Positions 16,136 through 32,948 of a stretch of 64,000 nucleotides of DNA are shown here, one piece after another (position 1 is the stretch's first letter; each line of letters starts with the position of its first letter). The notes under the pieces are model-generated. The model did not search any database. It saw nothing but the letters and a program-made list of their open reading frames with translations, and was not told where the DNA came from. A program made the translations under genes and the position numbers. This stretch comes from Desulfomicrobium sp. (GTDB taxonomy: Bacteria; Desulfobacterota; Desulfovibrionia; Desulfovibrionales; Desulfomicrobiaceae). Location: contig JAXGMI010000002.1 of NCBI GenBank assembly GCA_040768745.1, positions 192,001 through 256,000 on the forward strand. The letters run 5' to 3'.

Positions 16136-16885
16136 TCACCCGTACAGGTGATGCAGAAAATACTGCATTTGCCTGTACCACCAGGGCCAGTCGTGGTTGA
16201 CGTCCCGCCCCCAGAAATCAACCCAGGCCGGGACCCCTTTGTCCCGGAAAACGGCATCCAGGGCGAGGGTGTCGGCCACAGCCTCGTCCTCCCAGTCCCC
16301 CTGACCCACGCAGACGATGACGTTGCTGTCCCTGTAGCGATCCAGGTACCAGGAATCACTGATGTTTCGCAGATAGTTCAAGGGAGAGTTGAAATACACA
16401 GCGCCTATGTCGGCCGCCGAGAGCCCGAACTCCGATCGGTCGAGCCGGTACAGCCCGCTCAAGGCCACGGTGCCCATGAACACATCCGGGTGCTTGAGAA
16501 AGAAATTGACGGCATGGTAGGCGCCCATGCTGCACCCGTTGGTCATGATCCGCCCTTCGGCAAGGCTGCAATGGTCGCGGACAAAGGGGCCCACCTCCTG
16601 CACCACATACCGGTCGTAGGCTTCGTGTGCGGCGTTGCGGTCCGAGGGAGAGATGCCGAAATTGTACCACGACTCCGCATCGATGCTGTCGACGCAGAAC
16701 AGCTTGATCTTGCCGTTGTTGATAAAGGGTTCGACGGCCTGGATCATGCCCATGGTTTCGTAATCAAAATAGCGGCCCCGGGAGCAGGGGAAAACGATGA
16801 ACGGTTGTCCCCAGTGCCCGTAGACTTTCAGAGCCATGTCCCGCTGGAGGTTCGGGCTGAACCAATGTCTTTCTTCGGTGCGCAT
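16136..16885 (-). CDS. Putative esterase (alpha/beta hydrolase)
   Basis: YGHWG.P..VFP, GCSMG nucleophile elbow, VGQGDWE, HDWPWW. Confidence 0.85.
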   Translation of the reverse strand: MRTEERHWFSPNLQRDMALKVYGHWGQPFIVFPCSRGRYFDYETMGMIQAVEPFINNGKIKLFCVDSIDAESWYNFGISPSDRNAAHEAYDRYVVQEVGPFVRDHCSLAEGRIMTNGCSMGAYHAVNFFLKHPDVFMGTVALSGLYRLDRSEFGLSAADIGAVYFNSPLNYLRNISDSWYLDRYRDSNVIVCVGQGDWEDEAVADTLALDAVFRDKGVPAWVDFWGRDVNHDWPWWYRQMQYFLHHLYG

Positions 16886-16887
16886 GT

Positions 16888-18051
16888 CTAGCCTTCCGTT
16901 GCGTGGATGAACCGCGTGATCTCGTCAATATCGTCGAGACGTTCCGATCTGAAAATATACCCCACATCCCCCAGGGCGCTGCTGAACACTCCAGGAACGC
17001 TGGCCACCTGAACCATGAATGCTCCATAGCGGGCCAGAATGTCCTCGTGCGCGTGCACGTACCGCCGGTTGTTTTTGCGGCTGGCGTAGCAGCAGTGATA
17101 CCTGCGCTGGAAATCCAGATTCGCGCGCCCATCCACCAGCAGGTTGGCCCACACCCGGTAGATGTCCATATCGCAGGCGTAGTTGAACATGTCGGTGGTG
17201 AACCCGCCCGGCGGGCGCATGTTCACCTCCAGGGCCGTGTAGGCGCCAGGAGCGGTCTGGAAAAATTCGATGTGGAAAAAACGCTCCTGCACCGCAAAGG
17301 CCGCGACGCAACGCCTTCCGATCTCCTCCAGGGCGGGGGGGATATCCCGCAAGGAGTAGTACGAAATATGCCGGGCCTCGTTCACCGTCTCCATGATTCC
17401 CTGACTGAAGAAGTGGGAGGTGAAGAACACCAGGTTGCCGTCGCGGTCGGCCAGCCCGTCGAAGGAATAGATGTCCCCGGCGACGAACTCTTCCATGATG
17501 TAGTCCACTTGAGGTTTGCGGGCAAAGAACTGGATCAGGTCATGGTCGTTCTCCAACCTGTAGGTGTCCATCGCTCCAACCCCAGCATCGGGCTTGGCCA
17601 CCACCGGATAGCCCGTGTCCCGGATCAGGGCGCGGGCATCCCCGATGTCGCGGACCACCCTGCCTCGCGCCACCGTAACTCCGGCCTCCCGAAACGTGTC
17701 CTTCATCCTGGATTTGCGGCGGATCGTATCGATCTGGCTGACACGCACCCCGAAAATGTTGAAGTCGTCCCGGATCCTGGCTTCGGTCGCCAGCCAGTAC
17801 TCGTTCAGCGACTCGAATCTGTCGATCTTGCCGTATTTATGGGTGAAATACCCGCAAGCCCGGAGCAGTGCGTCGTAGTCGTGCATGTCGTTGACGCGGA
17901 AGTATTCGGTCAGTCCGTCGCGCACCTCGGAGGACAGATGGTCGTACTGCGGATCGCCAACGCCAAGGACGTTGGCTCCGGCCTGTTTGAGTTGGCTGCA
18001 GAAGTGGGCGTAGTGGGGCGGGAAGTGGGGAGAGAGGAAGACGACGTTCAT
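16888..18051 (-). CDS. ATP-grasp domain protein (putative carboxylate-amine ligase)
   Basis: KSRMK, GYPVVAKPDAGVGA, IMEEFV, FFHIEFF, LEVNMRPPG; AAAGGTG before ATG 18051. Confidence 0.85.
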   Translation of the reverse strand: MNVVFLSPHFPPHYAHFCSQLKQAGANVLGVGDPQYDHLSSEVRDGLTEYFRVNDMHDYDALLRACGYFTHKYGKIDRFESLNEYWLATEARIRDDFNIFGVRVSQIDTIRRKSRMKDTFREAGVTVARGRVVRDIGDARALIRDTGYPVVAKPDAGVGAMDTYRLENDHDLIQFFARKPQVDYIMEEFVAGDIYSFDGLADRDGNLVFFTSHFFSQGIMETVNEARHISYYSLRDIPPALEEIGRRCVAAFAVQERFFHIEFFQTAPGAYTALEVNMRPPGGFTTDMFNYACDMDIYRVWANLLVDGRANLDFQRRYHCCYASRKNNRRYVHAHEDILARYGAFMVQVASVPGVFSSALGDVGYIFRSERLDDIDEITRFIHATEG

Positions 18052-18212
18052 GGTGATCACCTTTGGAGAACAATTGTGTTTGGGCCACGATGGGCCGGGA
18101 GATTACCCTTCCGGCATCTGGATCATGAGCATGCATGGGTTGTCAACGCAACCGAAACCGGAAATGGCGTCGTGGTCTGAGTAGGTCCGCGGGTCTGACG
18201 AGGACAGAATGT

Positions 18213-18267: not shown

Positions 18268-19002
18268 CTAAGCCTTGTTTCTGGATGCAGGGCCGAAGAG
18301 CTTGGCGAACATGGCCTTGCGGTTCATGAGGCCAGGCAGTGTGGCTGAGGCCACGGCGAAGTCGTGATAGGATTTGGGCGGCATCTGGTACAGGTAGATG
18401 ACCCGGACCATGTCGGCATCGCCCAAGGTGGCTTCCGGATACTTCTTCTGGACTTCGGCCAGCCTCTTTTCGGCCAGGGCCAGCATCTCTTCCCGATCAC
18501 CGAAGTTCATGGCCCCGGTGGGACACGACTGCACGCAGGCCGGTTTGAGGCCGTTCTGCACGCGATCCAGGCACATGGTGCACTTGGTCATGACCTTGGT
18601 GGCCGCGTCCTGACGCGGAATGTTGTACGGGCAGGCCTCGCGGATTTCGTCGAACTCCGGCAAATCCTTGGTTTTTTCCGTGAAGATGACGGCACCGGTG
18701 GCCTCGTCATGGATGATGGCCTTGTCGTCATAGGCGTCGGCGGTCATCTTGCAGGGAGGTTCGGTGCAGTGCCGGCACTGCTCGGGGAAGAACAGCCACG
18801 CGGCCATGAAGCCCTTGTCGTCGGCCACTTCCTTCATGTGCACGGTTTTGTAGGTAATGGCCGAGACGTCCATGGGATTCTGGTGGGAACCATGGTTTCT
18901 GGTCTCTTCGGCCGGGAGTTTGTTCCACTGTTTGCAGGCCACCTGGCAGCCGCGGCAGGCCGTGCATTTGGTCAGATCGACGAAGAATGATTTTCCTGAC
19001 AT
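18268..19002 (-). CDS. fdhB: Formate dehydrogenase beta (Fe-S) subunit
   Basis: CTACRGCQVAC, CRHC..PPC, CPYNIP, CTMC..R...PACVQSCPTGA; directly after fdhA. Confidence 0.93.
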   Translation of the reverse strand: MSGKSFFVDLTKCTACRGCQVACKQWNKLPAEETRNHGSHQNPMDVSAITYKTVHMKEVADDKGFMAAWLFFPEQCRHCTEPPCKMTADAYDDKAIIHDEATGAVIFTEKTKDLPEFDEIREACPYNIPRQDAATKVMTKCTMCLDRVQNGLKPACVQSCPTGAMNFGDREEMLALAEKRLAEVQKKYPEATLGDADMVRVIYLYQMPPKSYHDFAVASATLPGLMNRKAMFAKLFGPASRNKA

Positions 19003-19013
19003 GTCGGCTCTCC

Positions 19014-22000
19014 TTACGCTTTCTTCACGTTGACCATGAAGGCCTTGGTTTCCGGGATACCCGTGTTAGGATCACCGACAGCTGGGGTCAGCAGGTTGGC
19101 CGCATCGCCGCCATCCTTGGGCCAGACCCAGCCGAAGTGCCATGGAATGCCCACGACATGGACCGGGTTCCCCATTACTTCGAAGGGCTTGAAACGTTTG
19201 GTGACAATGGCGATGGCCCAGAGTTTGCCGCGCAGGTTCTCCAGAATGACCTTGTCGCCGTTCTTGATGCCCTTGAGCTCGGCCAATTCCTCGCTCATTT
19301 CGCAGAACATCTGGGGCTGGGCTTCCGTCAGCCAGGGCAGCCAGCGGGTCAAAACACCCGTCTGCCAGTGCTCCGTGACCCGGTAGGTGGTGCAGACAAA
19401 GGGGAAGCGGGGGTCGCAGACCGTGCGCTTGTAGGCTTCGTCGGCAAACTGCAGAGCCGTGGGGTTGTTCAGCTGCTTGGAGAAGGGATGCTCGGTGACC
19501 GGGCATTCCAACGGCTCGTAGTATTCCGGGAACGGGCCGTCGTTGAGGCCGGGCCCGTAGAGTGCGCCCAAGCCATGCTGCTGCATGATGAATGGGTAGA
19601 TCGTGCCGGCATCGCCGCCGCCGTCAACGATGTCGATGAGCCATTTCTTGTTGGCTGCATCCCAGGCCAGCACAGGCTTGTTCGGCGCCCAGGGCTTGCC
19701 GTTCATGTCCACTGCGGCCCGGTTGTAGATGATGCGGCGGTTGACCGGCCAGGACCAGGTCCAGTTGGGGAACAGGCCAATCTTTTCCTGTTCCGGGGTC
19801 TGGGTCTTGTCACGGCGGGCGGCCATGTTGCCTTTGGCCGTGTAGGACCCGCTGTAGATCCAGTTGCCGGAGCAGGTGGAGCCGTCGTCCTTCAGGAACA
19901 CAAAGCTGGCGAGCTGGGTGCCGGCCTTCATGGTCGTTTCCGTTCCGTCAGCAGCCTTCACCACCGTGTCTTTCAGGTAGTAGCCGTTGATCAACTTGGC
20001 CACCTTGTGCGGGTCGAAGACATGTCCGTCACCCCAGTCGCCGACGTTGAGGCCGAGAACGGGTTCAGGGAAGGCGCCCTTTTCCTTTTCGTACAGTTCG
20101 CGGATCTTCAATGCCAGCTCGTAGATGATGTCGCCGTCAGGTTTGCTCTCACCCATGGGGGCGGGGCCTGGGTAGCGCCACTGCATCCAGCGGCCGGAGT
20201 TGGAGATGGATCCTTCCTTTTCCACGGACACGGCGCAGGGCAGGAAGAAGACTTCTGTCTTGATCTGCTTGGGGTCCATGCCCGGTCCCTTCCAGAAAGA
20301 GCCGGTCTCGTTTTCGAAGATGTTGACGTTGACCATCCAGTCCAGGTTGGCCAGGGCCTGACGGGTCTTGTTGGAGTCGGCGCCGCTGGCGGCCGGATTC
20401 ATGCCCCAGGCAAAGAAGCCCTTGAACTGGCCTTTGTGCATCTTGTCGAAGAGCACGAGCCAGGAGGCGTTCTGGCCGTCGTCGAGTTTCGGCATCCATT
20501 CGTAGGCCTTGGCGGGCTCGATGTCCTTGTACAGGGACTTGCACAGGCTGGCCATGTATTTGGGCTGATTTTTCTTCCAGTTCAGGCTCTTGGGATCCTT
20601 GCTGACCGGCGAGATGGACTTGATGTAGTCCTCGTAGGTGGCCAAACTTGCTCTGGGCGTGGGCAGATAGCCCGGGATGATGTGGAAGAGCAGGGCCTGG
20701 TCCGTGGAGCCCTGGACGTTGGATTCGCCGCGCAGGGCGTTGACGCCGCCGCCGGCCACGCCCATGTTGCCCAGGAGCAGCTGGATGATGCTCATGGCCC
20801 GGATGTTCTGCACGCCGACAGTGTGCTGGGTCCAGCCCATGGCGTACAGGATGGTACCGGCCTTGTCGGGCTTGCCCGTGGCGCTGTATGCTTTGTAGAA
20901 TGCCAACAGCTTATCTTCCGGTGAACCGGAAATGGCAGACACCTTCTTGATGTCGTAACGGTCGTAGTGCTTCTTCAGGAGCTGGTACACGCAGCGAGGA
21001 TCCTGCAGGGTCATGTCCCGCTTGGGCACCCCGTTCTCATCCATCTCGAAGGCCCAGGATTTCTTGTCGTACTTGCGGGCTGCCTGGTCAAAACCCGAGA
21101 ACAGGCCGTCCTTGAAGTCGAAATCCTTGGAAACAAGGAACGATGCATTGGTGTAGCTGAGAACGTACTCTTTCTGGATCAGGTCATTGTCCAGAATGTA
21201 CTTGATCATGCCGCCCAGGACGCCGATGTCGGAGCCTGAACGCAGGGGAACGTAGAGATCGGATTTGGAGGAGGTGCGGGTGTAGCGCGGGTCCACATGA
21301 ATGACCATGCCGCCCTTTTCCTGCGCCCTGGTGACCCATTTCCAGCAGATGGGATGGTTTTCGGCAGCGTTGCTGCCCATTACGAGAATACAGTCACTGT
21401 TCTTGAAATCGATCCAGTGATTGGTCATTGCGCCGCGTCCGAACGACTCTGCCAGAGCCGCAACAGTCGCGCTGTGTCAAATACGGGCCTGATGCTCTAT
21501 GTAGGTTAACCCCAGACTGCGGAGAAATGCCTGGTAGATCCAGCATTCCTCGTTGTCCATGGCGGCCGAGCCACACGAGGCGATGGCTTCGGTGCGGTTG
21601 ACAACCTGTCCTTTGGCATTGCTGCCGGTGAAGGACGCGTCACGGACACTCTTCACGCGTTTGGCGATTTCTTCCAATGCCCATTCCCAGCTCTTCTCTT
21701 CCCATTTGTCGCTGTTGGGGGCGCGGTACTGGACTTTGGTGACGCGTTTGGGATTCTCGGCCAGCTGAAAAGTGGCCGCGCCTTTGGCGCAAAGAGCGCC
21801 TTCGTTGATGGGATGGTCCGGGTCGCCTTCGATGTTGATGGCGCGTTTGGTGGCTTCGTCCGTGGTGACGATGAGTCCGCAGCCCACGGAACAGTAGCAG
21901 CAGACCGATGTGGTTTCTTTGCCTTTGCGCAGACTCATGAGCTGCGCGTGGGCCTTGGTCGGGGCCAGGTCAAACCCAAGGCCTCCGAAGGCCGTGACCG

Positions 22001-22049
22001 CGGTAGCCGCAGCCGTGAGTTTGACGAATTCTCTTCTTCCCAGTTTCAT
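19014..22049 (-). CDS. fdhA: Formate dehydrogenase alpha subunit, selenocysteine-containing, Tat-exported (FdnG type)
   Basis: Two ORFs in one frame joined at UGA 21477-21479: EHQARI-U-HSATVAALAESFGRGAMTNHW; Tat motif RREF; CCYCSVGC Fe-S motif; LRGESNVQG; C-terminal PETKAF; GGAGG RBS. Confidence 0.95.
21441..21476 (-). promoter_or_regulatory. Putative bacterial SECIS element
   Basis: Immediately 3' of the Sec UGA; apical hairpin ggcucu-GGC-agaguc with a G-containing loop. Confidence 0.7.
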
Positions 22050-22362
22050 GCCGTTCCTCCTGACAATGGTTCTGGTTTTACCTGCCACGGATTTCCCGGC
22101 CCAGGCGGATGCAAAACCGCCTGCCAACCGGGAGGGGGATTTCTGAGGCGGGTCGCCACAGATACTGATTGACGTTCATCAGCGTAGGGCGCCTGCGGAA
22201 AACCCGCCCAAGATCAAAGCCGAGTCCGGAAAAGGGGAACATGCATTCCGGCGAAAGGGTTTCGCCCTGGCTTGCCGAAGGAAGTTGATTCTTCAGTACC
22301 TTATCCGAACATCGCATGCTGCGGTGTATGAATCAAAAAAAAGGAAATGCGCAAGGAGAAGG

Positions 22363-23223
22363 TTAATCCTCAAAGTCCGGCACCAGATCACAAAGATATT
22401 TGGCCAGGATAGGAAAGATGTCTTGCGTTCTGTGGTTATATCTGAACTCCAGCTCCTTGATGTAGAGTGGAAAATTGCGGGGCGAGATGCCCTTCAGCCT
22501 CCGGAACCATTCCTTGGAGTAGGACCAGAACCCCTTGGATGAGTCGATGAAAAGCCCTTTGTCCGCATGCTTGATGTTGTACGTGGCAGAGAGGCGGCTC
22601 CCGCCGACAAGGAGGGCTGAATACTGTTTAAATTGATCAGTATAAATGATTTTGCCGAGGCTTGCAGTCTTCAGATGAAAGTTCATTTTGAAGTGCACGA
22701 TGTTGTCTTCGTCCAGTTCGGGGATGAGGTCGGCAAACACATGCGGACCGCGTTCGACAATGCCGAAGACAGGCATGCGTCCTCCGACCTTGGAGCTGAC
22801 ATCGAGGTGGAATTTTCCGGACTTGCCGAAGCCCAGACCTTCAATGGAGCGGATAATGAGGGAGGCGTCCAGGGAGTGTGCCAGGATGGCCATGCGCAAG
22901 GTGGTTACTGATTTGTAGGCGGTGTTGTAGGATACGGACAACTGTTCGGCCATGCGGCCGGTGGGCACCTCAAGTTCAAAGAGTTTGATGAGTCGCAGCC
23001 ATTGCTGGCAGGTGATGTTTCCGTTGTTGATGAAACGCTGGCTGAAGTCGTGAAACGTATAGGCGCAACGCCCACAACGCCGCCGCCCACCCTGCAGGGT
23101 GTAGATTCTGCGGGACCGGCATTTAGGGCAAAATCTTTGATGGTTTTTCCAGCAAAAATGCAACAAAAATTTTTTTGCTGTATTTTCATTTTTAACAATT
23201 TTTTCAAAAGATTGTAGATCCAT
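22363..23223 (-). CDS. IS1595-family transposase-derived protein (Zn ribbon + HTH + degenerate DDE domain), apparently catalytically inactive
   Basis: FCPKC..CGRC, QLSVSYNTAY HTH, PVFGIVERG, IIYTD, GFWS, LYIKELEFRYNHR; lacks the E-x-D-E-(T/S) and H-x-N-x-I-E motifs; no terminal inverted repeats seen. Confidence 0.8.
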   Translation of the reverse strand: MDLQSFEKIVKNENTAKKFLLHFCWKNHQRFCPKCRSRRIYTLQGGRRRCGRCAYTFHDFSQRFINNGNITCQQWLRLIKLFELEVPTGRMAEQLSVSYNTAYKSVTTLRMAILAHSLDASLIIRSIEGLGFGKSGKFHLDVSSKVGGRMPVFGIVERGPHVFADLIPELDEDNIVHFKMNFHLKTASLGKIIYTDQFKQYSALLVGGSRLSATYNIKHADKGLFIDSSKGFWSYSKEWFRRLKGISPRNFPLYIKELEFRYNHRTQDIFPILAKYLCDLVPDFED

Positions 23224-23455
23224 TTGTGCTATTATTCAGTGTAAAAATTTGAGTATTAATCTAAAAATTCTGAAATGTGTTTTTTTCGATTAGCCACAAA
23301 CCATCAGGGTTTTATTATGTCAGAATTGATATAATCATCGTGTGCTCAAATATTCCAATTCATGGTTTGACACAAAATAGTCTGTTTGCAGCCTGTAATC
23401 AACTCCCGAAGTGCATCCGCAGCGGAATGCTATCCCGTGCACAAGGAGCAAAAGG

Positions 23456-24703
23456 ATGCACGTCTTCCAAGGAGCCCGGTCGGTGCAATTATACGATTAC
23501 CTTTTTTTGCTCTTCAGCCTTGTGTTCCTCAGTTCGTGCAGAGATGCGGACGTGCAGATCCCCATGTCTCAACTAGGGATCGGGGTGAACAGCTCCGAGG
23601 TCGTTTTTGGATCGTCCCTGGCCCTGCAGGGACATGCCGGGTATCTCGGCCAGGAGACATTGCGCGGAGCCATGAGTTACCTCCAGCACGTCAATGATCG
23701 CGGCGGAGTGCATGGTCGGACCGTCCGGCTGATCGCCCGGGATGATTCCTACGACCCTCCAAAATGCCTGCAAAATACCCAGAAATTTTTAATCGAAGAC
23801 CAGGTGTTTGGGCTGTTCAGCTTCGTAGGCACCCCGACAGCGGTCAAAATTCTGCCCCTGGTGGAGGAGGCCGAGGTGCCTCTTTTAGGCATGTTCACAG
23901 GTGCCAATGCCTTGCGCGAGCCCTTCACGTCCAATCTCATCAATGTGCGCGCTTCCTATTACCAGGAAACAGATGCCGCGGTGCAGCACATGGTCAGGGA
24001 TCTGCATCTGACCCGCATCGCCGTTTTCTACCAATACGACGCTTACGGATTCGACGGCTTGATCGGCACAGAGCTAGCCCTGAAACGTTTCGGCTTGGAG
24101 CCCGTGGCCCGTGGAAGTTACGTGCGCGGCACCCAGGACATCGGAGAGGGCTTTGATCGCATCCGGGAGGCTGGAGCAGAGGCAGTGTTCATGATTGGTA
24201 CCTCCGATCCCTGCGCAAATTTCATTCGCAAATCCATGGAGTCGGGCTATGATCCCATTTTCTATATGGTGTCCTTTGTCGGCGCCAAGGAATTGGCCCG
24301 CAACCTCTTTGGAACGGGTACCAGCAACGCCAATGTGCTGATGTCCCAGGTCGTTCCGCCGCCGATCATGCCGGACGGGAAGGTTACGGAAAGCGCCGAG
24401 GAGTTTGTCCGCCTGCTGGGAAAGTACTTTCCCGGGGAGGAGCCCAATTTTGTGGGCTTCGAGGGCTACATCAACGCCAAGGTTCTGGTCGAAGCGTTGC
24501 ACAGGGCGGGTCGCGATCTGACCAGACAATCCTTCCTGGGCGCCATCAGCTCCATGACCGATTTTTCCCTGGGCAAAGATGTAAGCCTGTCGTTTGGACC
24601 TGCGGACAATCAGGGCATGGACAAGGTGTACTTCACCCGTCTGCATGACGGGAGGTTCGTCCTCGTCGAAGACTGGAAGCGACTGCCCCAGGGGCGGCAA
24701 TGA
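23456..24703 (+). CDS. Periplasmic ligand-binding lipoprotein (LivJ/PBP type 1 family)
   Basis: Lipobox-like LVFLSSC; VNDRGGVHGR, DDSYDP, FVGTPT, NVRASY, FEGYINAK; AAGGAG RBS. Confidence 0.85.
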   Translation: MHVFQGARSVQLYDYLFLLFSLVFLSSCRDADVQIPMSQLGIGVNSSEVVFGSSLALQGHAGYLGQETLRGAMSYLQHVNDRGGVHGRTVRLIARDDSYDPPKCLQNTQKFLIEDQVFGLFSFVGTPTAVKILPLVEEAEVPLLGMFTGANALREPFTSNLINVRASYYQETDAAVQHMVRDLHLTRIAVFYQYDAYGFDGLIGTELALKRFGLEPVARGSYVRGTQDIGEGFDRIREAGAEAVFMIGTSDPCANFIRKSMESGYDPIFYMVSFVGAKELARNLFGTGTSNANVLMSQVVPPPIMPDGKVTESAEEFVRLLGKYFPGEEPNFVGFEGYINAKVLVEALHRAGRDLTRQSFLGAISSMTDFSLGKDVSLSFGPADNQGMDKVYFTRLHDGRFVLVEDWKRLPQGRQ

Positions 24704-26694
24704 AACCGTATGCCCGCATTTCCCTCAAGAACAAGATCTTTGTCTCCATTCTTGCGGTCATTTTGGTCATCAGTATAACCATCGCGCTTTTGGCGCGCTG
24801 GATCCTCATTTCAGGTCTGAACAAGGAACTGGAGCTGCGTGGTGTGGCCGTGGCTTCCTCCATCGCCGAGCGTGGAACCGGGTTTGTCCTGGATAAGAAC
24901 TCTCCTGAACTGCTGAGCCTGATTTTTGACGAGGCCCGATTGAGGGAGCGCCAGCATCTGATCAACTATATTTTCGTGCTGGATCGCAACGACCAGGTGC
25001 TGTCCCATACCTTCAGCGTGCCCTTTCCGGCGGCCCTGGCCCTGGCCAACCCCATCCCGGAAGGGAAGGAGCAAAGCGTCTACCTTGTGGAGCATGGGCA
25101 TCATACCTCTTACGATATCGCGGTGCCCATGAACGAAGGCCTGTACCGCATCGGGAGCGTGCATGTCGGTTTGAGCAAGGAACACATCGACATGCTGGTG
25201 GCCAAGTTGCGATTCATGTTCCTGGGCTTTATCTCAGCGGTCGTCATCATCATTTTCTATGTCAGCCTTCGTATTTCCCGCTATATCACCAGCCCTATCG
25301 CGCGACTGACCGCCATCTCGGATGAACTGAGTCGTGGAAATTTCGACGTGAACATGGGCATGGGCAGAGGCCTGGACTGGGCCGTGATCAACTGCCCTGC
25401 CTACAAGGATACGAACATGCCCTGTTGGCATTTCGACGAACAAGCCAGAGTGAACCGCGATGCCGAGAGAAATACCGGCCAGGTCTGCTCTACATGTCTG
25501 TTCTACCGGAAGCGGGAGGGGGACGAGGTCATCCAGTTGGCCGATTCATTCATGAACATGGTCTGGTCTATCAGACTCTATCGCAAGCGCTTGCAAGAAT
25601 CGGAAATGAAGTACCGGTCCCTGTTCGATTCCGGACCGGATCCGATCTTTGTTGTCGATTGCGCAACAGGCACGGTGCTGGATGCAAATCCCCGGGCAGA
25701 GGAAACCTATGGGTATGCCAGAAGCGAACTGGTTGGGTTGCCATTTTCGAGACTCGCCCAGGACAATGTGCGGGAGAGCCTGGCCTCCCTGGATGAGGCA
25801 TCCACGCCGACGGGTTGTGTGTACTACCCGAAGGTTCTGCACTACAAAAAGGGGGATCAGCCGTTCTATGTGAATATGCATGCCTGTCCCATCAGTTACG
25901 GCAAGACTCTCTCAGTCATCGTGGCCGTGACCGATATCACCGAAATGATGGAAAAGGATGCCCAATTGATACAGGCCGCAAAGATGAAGACCCTGGGAGA
26001 AATGAGCGCGGGCATCGCACATGAGATCAATCAGCCCCTGAACGCCATCAAAATGGGCAGTGAATTCCTGAACCTGCTGATCGAGCAGAATCGTGAACTG
26101 ACCGAAACCCAGGTCCGGGATATGGTCAATGTGATCAGTCAGCAGGTGGACAGGGCCTCGGACATCATCAACAACCTGCGGGCCTTTGGAAAAAAATCAG
26201 GAATTGTCCTGGAGCGGGTGCACATGAACGATCCCATCCGCGGGGTGCTGTCCATCATTGGCCGTCAGTTTTCTCTCCAGCGCATCACAATCCGTCTTGA
26301 ACTTGCCGAAGCGTTGCCGACCGTCTTCGGGCATAACAACCGTCTGCAGCAAGTCTTCTTCAACCTGCTCAACAACGCCCGTGACGCAATCCAGGAGAAA
26401 ATGGAAAGTGAGCCCGCCCTGAGGGGGGATATCCTGATCAAAACGTATGCCGAAGCAGGTCGGGTTTTCGTCTCCTTTGCCGACAATGGGGCTGGAATTC
26501 CCGAAAACGTCCGCAACAAGATATTCGAGCCGTTTTTCACCACCAAGCAGACGGGAAAAGGCATGGGACTGGGGCTGGCCATCACCTATGGCATTGTCCG
26601 GGATTATGGTGGGACCATCACGATTGACAGCTGTCCAGGCCAGGGCACCACCTTTGTGTTGAGCTTCCCGGGTGTTGACGAGACAGACGGATAA
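24700..26694 (+). CDS. Membrane sensor histidine kinase (periplasmic domain, HAMP with Cys-rich insert, PAS, HisKA, HATPase)
   Basis: Two TMs; [12 protein letters not shown]-box; [33 protein letters not shown] overlap with the upstream gene. Confidence 0.92.
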
Positions 26695-26740
26695 TGGCTG
26701 TAATTGCCTGCGTTCACCTCAATCCGCTGGGATGTCCGGA

Positions 26741-27457
26741 ATGACACACGAAAAAATACTGGTCATTGATGATGAAAAGCCAACCCTCAAGATGTTCAGG
26801 CTTTTCCTGGAGGTGTATGGCTTTGAGATCATGACGGCCGAGTCAGGAGAAGAGGGGTTGAAGGTTTTCGAGCGGGAGAGACCGGATATTGTGCTGACCG
26901 ATATCAGGATGCCCGGGATGGGCGGCATTGAGGTGCTGCAGGAAATCAAACGACGTTCACCCGCAACTGAGGTCATTGTCATCACAGGGCATGGGGACAT
27001 GGACCTCGCCATCCAGGCCCTCAACCTCGATGCGGCGGATTTCATCAACAAGCCAATCCAGCGTCAGAATCTGGAGGAAGGTTTGATCCGGGCCAGGGTG
27101 CGGCTGCAATTGGCCCGCAGCCGGCAAAAAGAAGTCAGCCTCAGAAAGGTCGGCGGTGCCTTGGTCATCGATATTCATGGCCGTTTCGGTTCACACAGCG
27201 AACCGTACCTGCGCGAAGTGTACTCCAAGGCTGTGGACTCCCGCACACGACGTATCATTCTCAATTTTGACCCCAATACATCCATCAATGGGGCTGGGAT
27301 TGCCATTTTGACGCAGCTGTTCATGGACAGTGAAAGGGCTGGCATGGAAATGGTCATGGCTGGGCTGTCAGACAATTTCCGCATGGTATTCGGCATGGTG
27401 GGATTGAGTCAACTGGCTGAGATGCATGACACTTTGGAGCAAGCACTGAATCCTTGA
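26741..27457 (+). CDS. Response regulator with C-terminal STAS (anti-anti-sigma-like) domain
   Basis: ILVIDDE, LTDIRMPG, ITGHG, FINKP; then IILNFD..SINGAG, GLSDNFRMVFGMVGL. Confidence 0.87.
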   Translation: MTHEKILVIDDEKPTLKMFRLFLEVYGFEIMTAESGEEGLKVFERERPDIVLTDIRMPGMGGIEVLQEIKRRSPATEVIVITGHGDMDLAIQALNLDAADFINKPIQRQNLEEGLIRARVRLQLARSRQKEVSLRKVGGALVIDIHGRFGSHSEPYLREVYSKAVDSRTRRIILNFDPNTSINGAGIAILTQLFMDSERAGMEMVMAGLSDNFRMVFGMVGLSQLAEMHDTLEQALNP

Positions 27458-27545: not shown

Positions 27546-28130
27546 CTACAGCACGTGGACCTCGCTGTTGTCCAATTTGCGCAGGTCATGAGGGTAGTTG
27601 ACGTTGAAGAAAAATTTGCCGTCATTCTCCGCATAGGTAATTGTATGGCGCAAGGATGGGGGGATGAGTCGGCTCAATTTGAAGACTCCCCGGGCCACAC
27701 CCTGTTCGAGATGAGGAAGAGCCCCGTCTTCGTAGATGGCGACCAAGGCCTCGATAAACCCCGTGCCCCCTTGTTCCCATGTGGTCATCACGCAGTGGGG
27801 AGGGCGCTTGGCGTGGGCCTGCAGGAGCTGTCGCACAACGCTGTCTTCCATGAATGGCAGGTCGCAGGCCAGCACAAGCAGCGGCCCACCCAGGCGCCTG
27901 AGGGCAGTGATGATGCCGCCCACCGGTCCCATCCGCTCCGTCGCATCAACAATGACCGGCAGGGGCAACGGCATGGTTTCCGGGTGCCTGCAGGAGATAT
28001 AGACCTCTTCGCAATGCCGGCCCAGAAGTGCTGCCGAGCGTTCCAAAAGGGTCTGTCCTCCATGTAGGACTGCAGTTTTGTCTTGCCCCAGGCGGGAGGA
28101 TTGTCCCCCTGCCAGCACGACTCCTCTCAT
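27546..28130 (-). CDS. mobA: Molybdenum cofactor guanylyltransferase
   Basis: VVLAGGQSSRLGQDK, GPVGGI, LACDLP, FFNVNYP. Confidence 0.92.
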   Translation of the reverse strand: MRGVVLAGGQSSRLGQDKTAVLHGGQTLLERSAALLGRHCEEVYISCRHPETMPLPLPVIVDATERMGPVGGIITALRRLGGPLLVLACDLPFMEDSVVRQLLQAHAKRPPHCVMTTWEQGGTGFIEALVAIYEDGALPHLEQGVARGVFKLSRLIPPSLRHTITYAENDGKFFFNVNYPHDLRKLDNSEVHVL

Positions 28131-28293
28131 GTTCTCCCCGGTATGTCAGTTTCGTTGGCCTGTCCTTGCCGGAGACGTCACAGGGAATCCACCGGCATGA
28201 ACGCACCCCTGCGAAAGTGACGCTGCAAAGGACCGTCTTGGAACGCATGTGGTGCCCAGTTCGGTAGGCAGAAGGTTCCTGTTTACGCCCCTG

Positions 28294-29178
28294 TCAGAAT
28301 CCCCAGGCTGAGAGAGTCGGCCGCTTGTATTTTTTCTCCCGGGCCAGGACGTCAAGTCGCAGGGACTCCAGATCGTCCACCAGAGGCAGGGCCCTTCGGT
28401 CAAGGTTCCTGAAATCCGTTGTCTTGATATACATTTTACACGTTTTGCAGGCATTGACGCGCAGTCCCGGCTCTTCAGGACTGTCGTAATATTCGAGTCT
28501 GCCCGTGTCTGTTTCGAGACAGAAGGGGCACTGGAGCCGGGTGGCGCGGTATTCGGCATGACAGAATCCACAGATGTTGTAGCGAAAGCCTTCCTTTTCC
28601 CGCAGATCTGACATGATGGGCATGCTGCCGCACAGGGGGCAGTGTCCGTGGCCCCATGATTTGTTCAGGTCAGTCCGGGCTCCAAGCAGCTCGGCGCAGC
28701 GTTCCAAGGACGGAGTCATGGCTGCCTGCACAAGCATGGGCAGGGTCCGGGGGGCACTCGGGGTGGCAGTGCTCCACTTGGCGAAAAAGTTTTCGTCGCC
28801 GTCTAGATGGGCCTGCATGGCCTCGTCCAGATTGAGTGAGGGCTCTTTCAACGACCTGTCAATGGACGAAGCCGCTTCTTTCAAGGCCGGAGTGCTGGCC
28901 GCAAGGAGTTCCAGGAATTGATGGAAAAGACCCACGGTCTGGTCCCGGTCATACGGGAATTTGTTTCGCGGAAGCAGGGGCGCTCCCTGGGCGTGCTGGA
29001 GTGGGTCGGCGATCCCCAGCGTGGAGGCGGATGAAACCTGGGCCTTTTCGCGCGACTCAAGTTGGGCGGAGTATATCTTTTCGACCAGATGGATCAGGTC
29101 TGCGGGCAGAAAACCCCGTTCTTTGCATGCGTTGATCCGCTTGTTGAGCAATTCCCGTGCATTTCCGGCTGCGAGCAT
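28294..29178 (-). CDS. fdhE: Formate dehydrogenase accessory protein FdhE
   Basis: GHCPLCGS, CGFC..RLQCPFC, CKTCKMYIK, DDLESLRLD; start ATG 29178 or 29184. Confidence 0.9.
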   Translation of the reverse strand: MLAAGNARELLNKRINACKERGFLPADLIHLVEKIYSAQLESREKAQVSSASTLGIADPLQHAQGAPLLPRNKFPYDRDQTVGLFHQFLELLAASTPALKEAASSIDRSLKEPSLNLDEAMQAHLDGDENFFAKWSTATPSAPRTLPMLVQAAMTPSLERCAELLGARTDLNKSWGHGHCPLCGSMPIMSDLREKEGFRYNICGFCHAEYRATRLQCPFCLETDTGRLEYYDSPEEPGLRVNACKTCKMYIKTTDFRNLDRRALPLVDDLESLRLDVLAREKKYKRPTLSAWGF

Positions 29179-29339
29179 GTGCATTCTCCGTCAAAGGTGG
29201 AAGAAAAACAAGACATAACCGCCAACTTGCTATCCTTTCTTGCCACATATCACAATGCTTGTTTTATGCCCATGATTCATCTTATGGAATTGTCCGTTTG
29301 ATCGTGTGACATGTCATCCTCAAACGAGGGGAGGGAATC

Positions 29340-29753
29340 ATGACTGACTTTGCACAGGATGTAAGCCTGACCTTGCGTCTCCACTTCTGGCTTGAAAAGG
29401 ATCAGAAGATCTTCCTTGGCATTGGGCGGGCCTTGCTTTTGGAGAAAATAGAGGAGCACGGATCACTCCGGCAGGCCGCCACGGACATGAAAATGTCCTA
29501 CCGGGCAGCCTGGGGTAAACTCAAGGCGGCCGAAGAGAGTGTCGGCAGGCCGCTGGTGCAGAAGGTCAAAGGGCGGGGCCAGCGTTATGAATTGACGCCC
29601 GTGGGACGCCAACTGTCCCGCCAATTTCTGCAGCTCCAGGAGGACATCGAAACATTTGCGCGGACCAAAGCCCAGGAACTTTTCGGTGAAAAGGTGCAGT
29701 ACTACGCTGAGACCTACCCCGAAGGAAAAACACCACCCCTGAAGCCGGAGTAG
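29340..29753 (+). CDS. ModE-family winged-helix regulator lacking the molybdate-binding TOBE domains
   Basis: LGIGRALLLEKIEEHGSLRQAATDMKMSYRAAWGKL, LTPVG; upstream of moeA genes. Confidence 0.85.
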   Translation: MTDFAQDVSLTLRLHFWLEKDQKIFLGIGRALLLEKIEEHGSLRQAATDMKMSYRAAWGKLKAAEESVGRPLVQKVKGRGQRYELTPVGRQLSRQFLQLQEDIETFARTKAQELFGEKVQYYAETYPEGKTPPLKPE

Positions 29754-29756
29754 GTC

Positions 29757-30995
29757 ATGGATCATGGTTTTTTCCGGGTCATCACGCCGGCCCGTTTTCT
29801 GGAACTCCTCGCTGAATTCGCTCCAACTTCAGGAGAGGTGGCGGCCTTGGACGGCTGTCTGGGCCGGGTCCTGGCCGAAGATCTTGTGGCGGAGGAAAAC
29901 ATTCCAGCTCTGGACCGCTCCTGCATGGACGGATACGCACTGCGCGCTGCGGATACGTTCGGGAACAGCGAAGGCAATCCCGGCTACCTCCAACTCGTTC
30001 AGAATGCGGCCATCGACGAGGTGGTCGCTCGGCCGCTTGGGGTGGGCGAATGCATGGGTATTGCCACGGGAGGCTCGCTTCCGCCGGGCGCCGACGCCGT
30101 GATCATGGTCGAGCATACCCAGATCCTTGGTGAAAATACGGTCGAGGTCCGCAAGACCGTGGTGCCCGGGGAGAACGTCATGCTCGTTGGGGAGGACGTG
30201 GCGGCAAATGACGTGGCCTTGCCTGCCGGCCGCAGGCTGCGACCCCAGGACATTGGCCTCATGGCCGCCCTGGGTTTCAATACGGCCCGGGTCCATTGCC
30301 GGCCCCGCTGCGGTATCGTCTCCACAGGGGACGAACTCGTGCCCGTAACGGATAAACCCCGTCCCGGACAGGTCCGGGACGTCAATACGCACACACTTGC
30401 CTGCCTGGCCCGTCAGGCCGGGGCCATACCGGTGCTGCGCGGGCTGGTTCCTGACCAGCGGGAAAGCCTGGTGCGGGTCATATCCGAAAGCCTTGACCAG
30501 GACGACGTGCTTTTCATTTCCGGCGGCAGTTCCATCGGGGTCAGGGACCTGACCATCGATGTCCTGGAGTCCTTTGCGGACAGTGAAATTTTGGCCCACG
30601 GTGTGTCCATCAGCCCTGGCAAGCCAACCATCCTGGCCCGGGTCGGTGACAAGCCTGTTCTCGGTCTGCCGGGTCAGGTCACGTCTGCCCAGATCGTCAT
30701 GCTGGTTTTTGGGCAGCCCCTGCTCGCTCATCTTGGCGGAGATGCGCGAGCCTTTGATCCAGGTCGGAGGACCTTGCGTCCGGCGCGTCTCGGGGCAAAT
30801 CTTTCATCCAAACCCGGCCGGGAAGACTACGTGCGGGTTCGGCTGGAAGACCTTGGCGGAGAACTCGTGGCCATGCCAAGGTTGGGCAAGTCCGGCCTGC
30901 TGCGAACCATGCTCGATGCCGACGGATTGGTGCGTCTGGATGCCCCCTTGGAAGGGATAGCGGCCGGACAGACTGTGGCGGTCTGGGTCTTATAA
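29757..30995 (+). CDS. moeA: Molybdopterin molybdotransferase MoeA
   Basis: GRVLAEDL, SCMDGYA, TGGSLPPGADAV, STGDEL, SGGSS, PGKP, GLPG. Confidence 0.93.
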   Translation: MDHGFFRVITPARFLELLAEFAPTSGEVAALDGCLGRVLAEDLVAEENIPALDRSCMDGYALRAADTFGNSEGNPGYLQLVQNAAIDEVVARPLGVGECMGIATGGSLPPGADAVIMVEHTQILGENTVEVRKTVVPGENVMLVGEDVAANDVALPAGRRLRPQDIGLMAALGFNTARVHCRPRCGIVSTGDELVPVTDKPRPGQVRDVNTHTLACLARQAGAIPVLRGLVPDQRESLVRVISESLDQDDVLFISGGSSIGVRDLTIDVLESFADSEILAHGVSISPGKPTILARVGDKPVLGLPGQVTSAQIVMLVFGQPLLAHLGGDARAFDPGRRTLRPARLGANLSSKPGREDYVRVRLEDLGGELVAMPRLGKSGLLRTMLDADGLVRLDAPLEGIAAGQTVAVWVL

Positions 30996-31007
30996 CAGGG
31001 AGAACGT

Positions 31008-32948
31008 ATGCAAAAACGCAATGTTTATCTGCACACCATGCCTGTGGCCGAAGCCCTGCGCCTGGCCATAAAGGCCTTGGACCGGGATCGGCTGGTCCGC
31101 AGGGAAACCATTCCTGCCCAATTGGCATCAGGTCGGGTTCTGGCCAGGCCGGTTTATGCCGTGTGCTCGTCCCCCACGTTCCACAGTGCGGCCATGGACG
31201 GCTTCGCTGTGAGGGCAGATACGACCTTTGCTGCCCGGGAAGGTCATCCTCTGCGGTTGGCCAAGGGCACCCAGTGCGTGGCCGTCAACACGGGACATCC
31301 ACTTCCTGAAGGCATGGATGGCGTGCTCATGGTCGAAAAGGTTGTGCGTGAGACTGCGGACTTCATTGAAACGGAAACGCCGGTCTTTCCAATGCAGCAT
31401 GTCCGACGCATCGGTGAGGATATCGTGGCCACGGAACTGCTGCTGCCCCAGAACCGCCAGCTGTCGCCGTACGACGTGGGAGGGCTGCTGAGCGCGGGGA
31501 TCTGGGAGGTGCTGGTGTGGGAGAAGCTGCGCATAGCTTTCATCCCCACGGGCGACGAAGTCCTGGATTTTACCCTCCGTCCACAGCCCAGTCCAGGGCA
31601 GGTCATTGAAAGCAACTCTCAGATTTTTGCCGGACTGGCCGCCGCGCAGGACTGCCTTTTCGAGCGCATACCTCCCGTCCCGGACAACATGGAGGCCCTG
31701 ACCCAAGCTGTGCGGACTGCAGTGGATGGGGAGGCCCACATCGTGGTGGTGGGGGCAGGCTCATCGGCAGGGTCCAAGGACTATTCCAGGTCCATCATTG
31801 AGCGTCTGGGCCGCGTGCTGGTTCACGGAATTGACGTCATGCCCGGCAAGCCATCGATTTTGGGCGTGATCGACGGGAAACTTGTCGTGGGTGCCCCGGG
31901 ATACCCTGTGTCGGCCGTTGTCTGCTTCGAAGAACTGCTCATTCCCATTCTTTCCTGGCTGTCACGGAAGACACGGCCTGAACGGCGGAAGATCGGCGTC
32001 GAGATTTCCCGCAAAGTGCCCTCCAAGCTTGGCACCGAGGAGCTGGTTCGCCTGGCCATTGGCCGGGTGGGATCCAAATTAGTGGCCAGTCCCCTGAGCC
32101 GTGGCGCAGGTATGATCACCACATTGATCCGGGCCCAGGGTGTGACCCGCATCCCGGTCGACAGCGAGGGGGTCGAGGCAGGGAGCATGGTCCAGGCCGA
32201 GCTCCTGGTTCCGGAGTCAGAACTGGACCAGACCCTGATCGTGATCGGCAGCCATGACAACATCGTGGACGTGCTCGGGAACGATCTCATGTGTCTGCCC
32301 CGGCCGGTCCGCATCTCCTCCAGCCATGTGGGGTCCATGGGCGGCCTCACCGCCCTGCGCACCCGTTCGACCCTCATGGCTGGAACACATCTCTTCGATG
32401 AAGCCAGTGGAGACTTCAACTTTCCTTTTTTCAGCAAGTACTTGCCAGGCCTGGACGTGGTTTGTGTCAATCTGGCCATTCGCCACCAGGGCCTTATCGT
32501 GGCCAAGGGAAACCCCCTGAATATCCGGAGCGTGGAAGATCTGGCCCGGCCGGAGGTGCGCTTCATCAACCGCCAGCGCGGCGCGGGCACGCGCATCCTG
32601 CTCGACTATCATCTCCGTCAGGCCGGGATTGGAGCTGAACAGGTTCGGGGCTATGAGAAGGAGGAGTTCACGCATATGGCCGTGGCCGTCAACGTGCTGA
32701 CTGGCACTGCATCCTGTGGCCTGGGCATTTTTGCCGCAGCCAAGGCACTGGATCTGGACTTCATCCCTCTGGCCAGGGAGCGATACGACTTGGCGTTCCT
32801 GCCCGAACTGATGGATTGGAAAACGGAAGTTGTGCTGGAGCTGATCAGTTCGGCGGGATTCAAGGCCAGGATAGAAGCCCTTGGCGGCTACGAAACCACG
32901 CTTACAGGCCGGGTCATGCAACCGGGCGAGGGGCTTTGCGAGAAATAA
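31008..32948 (+). CDS. MoeA fused to a C-terminal periplasmic-binding-like (PBP) domain
   Basis: AAMDGFAV, PTGDEV, AGSSAGSKD, PGYPVSA; then GSHD, VGSMGGL, NRQRGAGTR, GYEKEEFTH. Confidence 0.9.
   Translation: MQKRNVYLHTMPVAEALRLAIKALDRDRLVRRETIPAQLASGRVLARPVYAVCSSPTFHSAAMDGFAVRADTTFAAREGHPLRLAKGTQCVAVNTGHPLPEGMDGVLMVEKVVRETADFIETETPVFPMQHVRRIGEDIVATELLLPQNRQLSPYDVGGLLSAGIWEVLVWEKLRIAFIPTGDEVLDFTLRPQPSPGQVIESNSQIFAGLAAAQDCLFERIPPVPDNMEALTQAVRTAVDGEAHIVVVGAGSSAGSKDYSRSIIERLGRVLVHGIDVMPGKPSILGVIDGKLVVGAPGYPVSAVVCFEELLIPILSWLSRKTRPERRKIGVEISRKVPSKLGTEELVRLAIGRVGSKLVASPLSRGAGMITTLIRAQGVTRIPVDSEGVEAGSMVQAELLVPESELDQTLIVIGSHDNIVDVLGNDLMCLPRPVRISSSHVGSMGGLTALRTRSTLMAGTHLFDEASGDFNFPFFSKYLPGLDVVCVNLAIRHQGLIVAKGNPLNIRSVEDLARPEVRFINRQRGAGTRILLDYHLRQAGIGAEQVRGYEKEEFTHMAVAVNVLTGTASCGLGIFAAAKALDLDFIPLARERYDLAFLPELMDWKTEVVLELISSAGFKARIEALGGYETTLTGRVMQPGEGLCEK

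Follow-up and report, generated by a model that had tools for sequence, protein, structure and literature searches.

In the genome of a Desulfomicrobium sp. (G000), a gene recognisable as an IS1595-family transposase lies in front of the operon for a periplasmic formate dehydrogenase (FDH), and annotation pipelines class such genes as mobile elements. The question raised by this locus is whether the gene still belongs to such an element or has become a DNA-binding regulator of the operon behind it, as proposed by the initial annotation. The window (the whole stretch of DNA that was analysed, 64,000 nucleotides) contains the following features around the gene:

22363..23223, minus strand: domesticated IS1595-family transposase, 286 aa, with Zn ribbon, HTH and remodelled RNase H-type core (G131/F132, D196, D227, K230)
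22078..22242, minus strand: small conserved ORF ahead of fdhA, 54 aa (PFxGLGxDL ... GYxL ... REIRG)
19014..22049, minus strand: fdhA, Tat-exported FDH alpha subunit with selenocysteine (in-frame TGA at 21477-21479)
18268..19002, minus strand: fdhB, iron-sulfur subunit
23411..27457, plus strand, divergent: periplasmic binding protein, sCache/HAMP/PAS histidine kinase and receiver-STAS regulator
27546..32948: FDH maturation cluster (mobA, fdhE, ModE-like HTH-only protein, moeA, moeA-PBP)
29340-29753, plus strand: the ModE-like protein, 137 aa, HTH only, no molybdate-binding domain

As originally noted, the transposase gene is co-oriented with fdhAB, and fdhA and fdhB lie downstream of it; beyond fdhB come esterase-family and ATP-grasp genes (16136-18060), likewise on the minus strand. 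A SECIS_3-like element of fdhA, which scores below the Rfam gathering score, is the only Rfam match in 21300-23600. The small ORF resembles part of the FdhA Tat signal region, has no Pfam match (Atlas best score 0.77) and occurs in many genera, including 8 of the 17 fdhA promoters of genomes without the dead transposase; it may serve as a decoy for Tat or a chaperone, or as a leader peptide. The divergent region said to be shared with a sensor operon was confirmed within the genus (20 of 20 loci), but only about 16 of 80 loci across the order show it when judged by eye. Relatives of the ModE-like HTH protein are present in 135 of 201 genomes of the order.

Two model strains probably carry the same gene. 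The accessible part of PMC10102598 lists DVU0583 (lipoprotein), DVU0584 ('transposase, putative', 873 bp), DVU0585, DVU0586 (225 bp) and DVU0587 (fdnG-1), and that of PMC4215793 names Dde_0714 ('transposase', with mutants), Dde_0715 and Dde_0717 (fdhA). Based on annotation and gene order, DVU0584 of D. vulgaris and Dde_0714 of D. alaskensis are likely orthologues, and both are annotated only as transposases, which is the mislabelling that had been anticipated.

Catalytic site, selection and distribution

The reading frame is intact, and every motif quoted in the initial annotation was found again. Pfam models for Zn_ribbon_IS1595 (PF12760, residues 11-56, 40.6 bits against a cut-off of 25.4) and DDE_Tnp_IS1595 (PF12762, residues 144-263, 44.5 bits against 27) both match, and the NCBIfam IS1595 transposase model (NF033547) gives 52.5 bits, below its cut-off of 75. 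Residues C32, C50 and C53 of the Zn ribbon are invariant. The accessible text of PMC8101967, from which the family criteria for the membership test were taken, describes an N-terminal Zn ribbon in every IS1595 group except IS1016. Compared with these criteria, the Zn ribbon is present, as is the domain DDE_Tnp_IS1595, and an intact DDE motif (G131, D196 and K230 stand in its place), complete terminal inverted repeats (TIRs) with terminal GG, a target duplication of ~8 bp and mobility are absent. An unrelated IS1595-family element without the Zn ribbon (IS1016-like) also occurs in G000 with intact motifs and repeats, in five full-length copies (one with an altered C-terminus) and one partial copy (C1:736402, C1:1102880, C1:1410369, C1:1413965, C2:170242 and C1:266644).

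Alignment with intact sister transposases, on which the triad was mapped rather than on structure since the model of the intact sister is poor in the catalytic region, places G131 at the first catalytic aspartate (D1), F132 at the following E, D227 at an N and K230 at the catalytic glutamate (E3). Among the best 120 of 2042 homologues, the full motif set is present in 44; in each of the other 76 the triad is disrupted. In the same best 120, E3 is glutamate in 44/44 intact and 0/76 dead homologues; at D1, 28 of the dead ones carry G and 17 carry D, within a segment that has indels and is hypervariable (identity 0.21 in dead versus 0.77 in intact forms). The second aspartate, D196 of the YTD motif, is retained in 68 and the new D227 found in 72 of these 76. 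The claimed catalytic death thus holds for two of the three residues, D1 and E3, but not for the second. The dead and intact groups are 48% identical over 283 columns of a profile alignment, and the dead forms make up one side of a branch with an SH-aLRT of 100 in a quick tree of the best 120 homologues.

Conservation of D196 and D227, together with the fact that both old ends of the element are recognisable, might point to a rebuilt acidic site with residual nuclease or recombinase activity on the repeats, for example in DNA excision or inversion. This appears very improbable in view of the universal loss of E3 among the 76, the hypervariable D1 segment, the lack of conservation of terminal GGT and target duplication, the fixed orientation of the gene in 19 same-genus loci and the absence of copy-number growth.

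The predicted structure is confident (pLDDT 90.6) and contains three helices at residues 72-115. In fold it comes closest to HTH, homeodomain and Myb domains, at a weak Z of ~4, and the SETMAR structure 7s03 appears as a weak HTH-level row (Z 3.7). No PDB match was found by Foldseek at E <= 0.001 and none by VIA-align at Z >= 5, and no solved structure matched the predicted model beyond the HTH; such an absence is no evidence for a new fold. According to the model, the DNA-binding domain is retained in the dead transposase. No sensor domain is recognisable in the protein, which was counted against the best explanation.

Evolutionary data bear directly on whether the gene is merely a neutral, decaying IS relic, as its transposase annotation and its GC content (0.50 versus ~0.60 for the genome) might suggest. 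Neutral evolution had been named in advance as an argument against domestication, and the opposite was observed: among 21 same-genus copies, dN/dS has a median of 0.075 and a maximum of 0.143 over 210 pairs (dS median 0.87), indicating purifying selection. The gene is single-copy in the genome apart from one paralogue at 45% identity, and 20 of 24 same-genus genomes have one orthologue. It also occupies the same place in relatives, with fdhA downstream in 19 of 20 same-genus loci (the remaining one is cut by a contig end) and an identical orientation in all 19 that reach fdhA. Among relatives at 81-86%, those with names are mostly Desulfomicrobium. Reading frames are open in all 150 listed matches across the order, and genera cluster on the gene tree. 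Against the combined selection and distribution data, the relic explanation is already refuted and retains next to no probability.

The dead family was detected in 117 of 201 Desulfovibrionales genomes (118 match at E <= 1e-30; G166, at E 4e-31, was uninspected and dropped). Of ~159 order-wide matches, 80 loci were fetched to span genera. The D1 motif is absent in all of them; fdhA is directly downstream in 41, fdhA, fdhB or fdhE lies within 5 kb in 21, and neither applies to 18. Across 79 named loci, five of whose intact members were reclassified, one of these three genes is nearby in 51/60 dead versus 0/19 intact loci, many of the intact ones being on short contigs. Co-occurrence in the 201 genomes also links the gene to this FdhA type (both in 107, gene only in 10, FdhA only in 16, neither in 68), and the 16 genomes with FdhA alone were counted against the best explanation.

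Catalytic loss, purifying selection and vertical descent, the criteria for domestication, are all found here. As judged from sequence, the gene is an ancient, real domestication that now stands outside the IS1595 mobile elements. On the gene tree, the paralogues (class B) nest among class A, and the placement of the more distant class C is unsupported; domestication may have happened once or twice. In a phylum-wide sample, 14 of 301 genomes match, 11 of them outside Desulfovibrionales; of the eight out-of-order loci inspected, most represent IS copies, either intact or decayed, and both residues are missing from one (L275). Both motifs are absent by pattern in 91 of 107 long representatives. 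Relatives without D1 and E3 outside the order (L275, P0143, P0183, P0174, P0179, P0195, P0207 and P0217; the named ones are Desulfuromonadales and Phycisphaerae) give hints of repeated domestication.

Terminal repeats of the intact sister element and their remnants

The intact sister clade (~46% identical) is a true IS of ~900 bp, present in several copies per genome and bounded by 25-bp TIRs (consensus GGTAATTAGTCACGTTTTGGCACCA) and AT-rich target duplications. The CxxVP C-terminus and the right repeat overlap, and the left repeat has its start 41 nt upstream of the ATG. Near-identical copies of this IS lie in unrelated contexts, as do those of the unrelated IS1595-family element in G000, whereas the dead gene has fixed neighbours. 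The two share length, architecture, the overlap of right repeat and C-terminus, and a TG[GA]CAC core; the dead family differs in having lost D1/E3, the terminal GGT and the target duplication, and in its 1-3 divergent copies at fixed loci with vertical descent. The ancestor is still alive at this identity, and the conversion can therefore be followed at the level of single residues and bases, down to the proposed reuse of a terminal repeat as operator.

Comparison with this consensus overturned the earlier statement that the locus has no terminal inverted repeats, for the inner 20 bp persist both upstream of the gene and at its 3' end:

22366..22385, minus strand: right TIR-derived box in the last codons (V-P-D-F-E-D), candidate fdh-promoter operator, assessed by intact-repeat matrix, family matrix and codon shuffle
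23237..23256, minus strand: left TIR-derived box, 33 nt upstream of the ATG, candidate autoregulatory site
23356..23375, minus strand: third TIR-like box in the divergent promoter, ~152 nt upstream of the ATG

Compared with each other, the 25-mers at 23237-23261 and 22361-22385 agree at 16/25 positions; they match the consensus at 15 and 16/25, respectively, near the register of the intact IS ends. They were recognised only through the intact sisters, and a repeat search with a 7-nt seed detected no TIRs. The terminal GGT is not conserved among orthologues, and the reported absence of a target duplication was borne out by two flanks that differ at the query locus. Terminal repeats, which the initial annotation had listed as an argument against domestication, are thus present in their inner part; since these remnants track the target promoter rather than the gene, they lend support to a regulatory role.

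The main box matrix drew solely on intact repeats, using the inner 20 bp of 24 distinct ones. With this matrix the query right box has a moderate score of 6.6, and with the family matrix it ranks fourth of 62 matches in a G000-wide scan that has no clear cut-off and delineates no wider regulon; the three other sites scoring at least as high were counted against the best explanation. The same scan found no box at the promoters of the second FDH cluster or of the class B-linked FDHs. Among dereplicated fdhA-adjacent loci (40 with a Tat start, less 2 without anchor), 30 of 38 have a box scoring above 6 in the 3' end of the gene. Synonymous shuffling (500 shuffles) gave a mean of 0.65 and a maximum of 3.8 against a real mean of 11.4, and therefore coding constraint does not account for the box. 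Codon choice is biased within it, with Val as GTG in 50/63 versus 344/759 elsewhere and Pro as CCA in 32/67 versus 73/797. Furthermore, a significant non-coding copy lies downstream in 6 of 8 loci with a weak coding copy versus 4 of 30 others.

Two groups of divergent copies extend this comparison. The class B paralogue (G000:C1:28330-29178, minus strand; L284) lies beside two fdhAB-fdhE units, fmdE and a second ModE-like gene, and has also lost D2 and the box. Class C comprises dead homologues of ~30% identity (L253-L263) that keep the box, most of them lying with hcp or NIR_SIR genes on one side and nrfHA or NapC plus multihaem operons on the other; it is possibly a second domestication, for nitrite reduction. 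The coding box, kept in 30/38 loci before fdhAB, is likewise kept in 7/8 class C loci before nitrite-reductase-type operons, versus 1/36 where no target follows (class B 0/26; class A away from fdhA 1/10). All class A, B and C copies scored have a CxxVP-type peptide; 7 more class A copies and 3 class C loci lack the anchor and are unscored.

The box also follows the presence of the gene in the genome. When the gene lies elsewhere, 15 of 20 fdhA promoters have a significant box, against 2 of 17 in genomes without the gene, the two sets consisting of related genomes from 8 and 6 genera, so that Fisher values overstate the difference, and one start (L354) probably being mis-called. Both box-positive promoters of gene-lacking genomes are without the GTGCC core. 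The 5 of 20 promoters of gene-bearing genomes without a significant box were counted against the best explanation. Two genomes (L358, L363) lack gene and box although their congeners have both, G042 has a 66% identical FdhA with neither, and in L239, where 3 kb lie between the gene and fdhA, a box precedes the small ORF's conserved motif by 248 nt. Retention of the box and its coupling to the target promoter and to gene presence are demonstrated by these comparisons.

In two genera (L199, L244, L245), the gene has been relocated directly behind or near topA, away from FDH. The fdhA promoter of G033 retains the box despite a gene away from FDH, and the other topA-linked genus (L367-L369) has a palindrome-like 20-mer in place of the box at the same distance.

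In each of the 21 same-genus loci, the query included, the left box comes out as the best site, at -32 to -34. Across the order, core hexamers peak at -30 to -21 (15 matches in 81 loci, other bins 0-5), but with the full matrix the left box scores above 6 in only 6 of 81 dereplicated loci, which was counted against the best explanation. For the third box, 15 of 21 loci have their best site in reverse orientation at -149 to -153.

Candidate fdh promoter and proposed regulatory mechanism

Downstream of the right box, a hexamer suggestive of a promoter is found:

22349..22354, minus strand: inferred sigma-70 -35-like hexamer, 29 bp from the box-core start, with an invariant TTG in 10 aligned loci

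Among 50 boxes, TTG[AC][CT]-type hexamers occur at 28-30 bp from the core start in 25 of 38 cases and at 33-35 bp in 7, the latter spacing class being half a helical turn off and counted against the best explanation. Class C loci show a spacing of 29 in four and 30 in one. A test for the -10 element was weak (21/30 at spacers of 16-18 versus 14-17/30 at control spacers), and a generic promoter scan did not call the putative promoter. A sigma-54 reading of the TGGCAC core was rejected, the GG-to-GC spacing being 9 or 11 by eye rather than 10. If the hexamer is the -35 of the fdh promoter, the box would span about -64 to -45 and the predicted transcription start would fall near 22318 on the minus strand; activators usually bind upstream of the -35, about where the box falls. 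Contigs assembled from four RNA runs cover fdhA and the small ORF, one bridging both (21849-22263), with short pieces inside the transposase gene, and are uninformative on starts or levels, with gaps in their coverage carrying no weight.

The proposal that the gene is a domesticated regulator of FDH gains support, at the level of sequence, from triad loss, single copy, fixed site, low dN/dS and a box that tracks the promoter. The following history may be suggested. An IS1595 element would have settled before the fdhAB operon in an early Desulfovibrionales lineage and been domesticated as a unit; the transposase would have lost D1 and E3 while keeping the Zn ribbon, HTH and core fold, and the inner 20 bp of the terminal repeats would have been kept as operators. 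We infer that binding of the protein to the right-end box (~-64 to -45, taking the hexamer as the -35 of a sigma-70 promoter) activates, rather than represses, the small ORF-fdhA-fdhB transcript, that the protein binds the left-end box over its own leader and thereby limits its own synthesis, and that it receives a signal of molybdenum/tungsten (Mo/W) status. That some regulator acts through the box, by activation or by repression or modulation, is regarded as likely; the fuller account, in which the dead transposase binds through Zn ribbon and HTH, activates the operon and limits its own expression downstream of a Mo/W signal, is somewhat more probable than otherwise.

The same protein and box could instead repress or modulate the fdh promoter, for instance by keeping another activator away or through a loop that joins the left and right boxes in the manner of a transposase synapse. 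The ties between box and gene fit either sign, three boxes surround the gene in both orientations, and the minor second spacing class is compatible with this. Nevertheless, the position of the box upstream of the putative -35 at a preferred distance is the usual activator geometry, and a local loop is difficult to reconcile with the retention of a box upstream of fdhA where the gene and its left box are distant from it. Repression or modulation is thus considered unlikely.

Somewhat further down the scale stands the possibility that the box is a promoter element, a legacy of the former IS end, which RNA polymerase or some other host factor recognises, and that the protein has been kept for a different job such as DNA/RNA binding or partnership in FDH maturation. 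The core domain is conserved as much as the HTH or more (dN/dS among same-genus copies of 0.043 for residues 151-231 and 0.107 for residues 1-119), class B paralogues are retained beside FDH genes without a box, and the gene closely follows fdhE or mobA in many genera. On the other side, the box is rare in gene-less genomes, where even L358 and L363 lack it, and it persists at the leader of the gene and before a different target, the nrfH-type operons.

The proposed Mo/W signal may reach the favoured activator through the promoter of its own gene, which contains a further conserved element:

23315..23334: 20-bp palindrome of the TTATGYC-N6-GRCATAA type, conserved in the genus

In G000 the palindrome also occurs before aor, moeA-mop, the paralogue/fmdE and the second FDH cluster (C1:17035, C1:29245, C1:760054, C1:1835402 and C2:655484-655605), and it probably marks a Mo/W-enzyme regulon. 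Since the gene's own promoter carries a palindrome common to Mo/W-enzyme genes, the protein would probably relay a Mo/W-status signal to FDH. Perfect sites are present in 64 of 117 gene-bearing versus 17 of 84 gene-lacking genomes, and the palindrome stands before fdhA in three genomes without the transposase gene. ModE-like HTH genes have a comparable distribution (135 of 201 genomes), two sites lie just upstream of a ModE-like gene in G149, and a PF12727 search saw no TaoR-like protein in G000; the ModE-like protein is the favoured owner of the palindrome.

The half-site of the palindrome resembles the box core, and together with the 20-bp frame it matches the left half of the box, which leads to a bolder reading. 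A whole IS may have become a portable regulator-plus-operator cassette that activates the operon next to what was once its right end. This would have happened for fdhAB and, through a repeat event or a duplication, for the nitrite-reductase-type operons of class C, and it may recur in other lineages; in the boldest form, dimers would also read the palindrome before aor, moeA-mop, fmdE and other FDH clusters. This is tentative and rather doubtful; if true, an ex-transposase would be the main Mo/W-enzyme regulator in these sulfate reducers.

Relation to known systems

Conversion of transposases to transcription factors is already known in eukaryotes and, in bacteria, for TnpB. The bacterial TldR proteins, described in the accessible text of bioRxiv 10.1101/2023.11.30.569447 as nuclease-dead TnpB repressors, likewise arose from a transposon enzyme that became a transcription factor by catalytic loss. 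They derive from an accessory RNA-guided nuclease, use a guide RNA and repress, whereas here the DDE transposase itself would act, on its own TIR and probably as an activator. TldR hallmarks were not seen at the locus, with IS1595 domains only and thus no TnpB/RuvC ancestry, and no guide RNA family in 21300-23600.

Eukaryotic transposase-derived factors include SETMAR and FHY3/FAR1. SETMAR binds Hsmar1 repeats, and its action on them is the closest in logic to the dead transposase and its box. Plant transposase-derived transcription factors are a further precedent (accessible text of bioRxiv 10.64898/2026.08.24.746577). The present family differs in being prokaryotic, in the retention of a whole IS in place as regulator plus operator, and in a small respiratory regulon rather than dispersed repeats. 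The dead transposase would work like these eukaryotic factors, which appears new for bacterial DDE transposases in the literature searched. That search, with most subscription papers outside its scope, yielded neither a description of the dead IS1595 family nor a report of a bacterial DDE transposase turned transcription factor, and 'DDE' and 'IS1595' occur 0 times in the main text of the review PMC8987985.

TunR has a recombinase-like DNA-binding domain. TaoR (accessible parts of PMC11980592 and PMC10102598), TunR and ModE-type Mo/W regulators of Desulfovibrio concern the same organisms and metabolic area, and the palindrome found here also stands before aor and moeA-mop. The dead transposase belongs to an unrelated family and has neither a TOBE nor a PBP sensor domain.

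For the periplasmic FdhAB of Desulfovibrionales, which the accessible part of PMC4215793 describes as required for growth on formate, a candidate direct regulator and an exact candidate operator can now be named. Likewise, DVU0586-0588 form the fdh1 operon, and FDH1 is needed for growth on formate and sulfate (accessible part of bioRxiv 10.1101/2022.01.18.476765). Two model strains already have transposon mutants in the likely orthologues, which makes the proposal quick to test. Pooled fitness values on formate given in PMC4215793 are uninformative here, being near zero for both Dde_0714 (+0.21, +0.10 and +0.01) and fdhA (+0.14, +0.15 and +0.11), and those of fdhA are attributed in that source to hydrogen cross-feeding.
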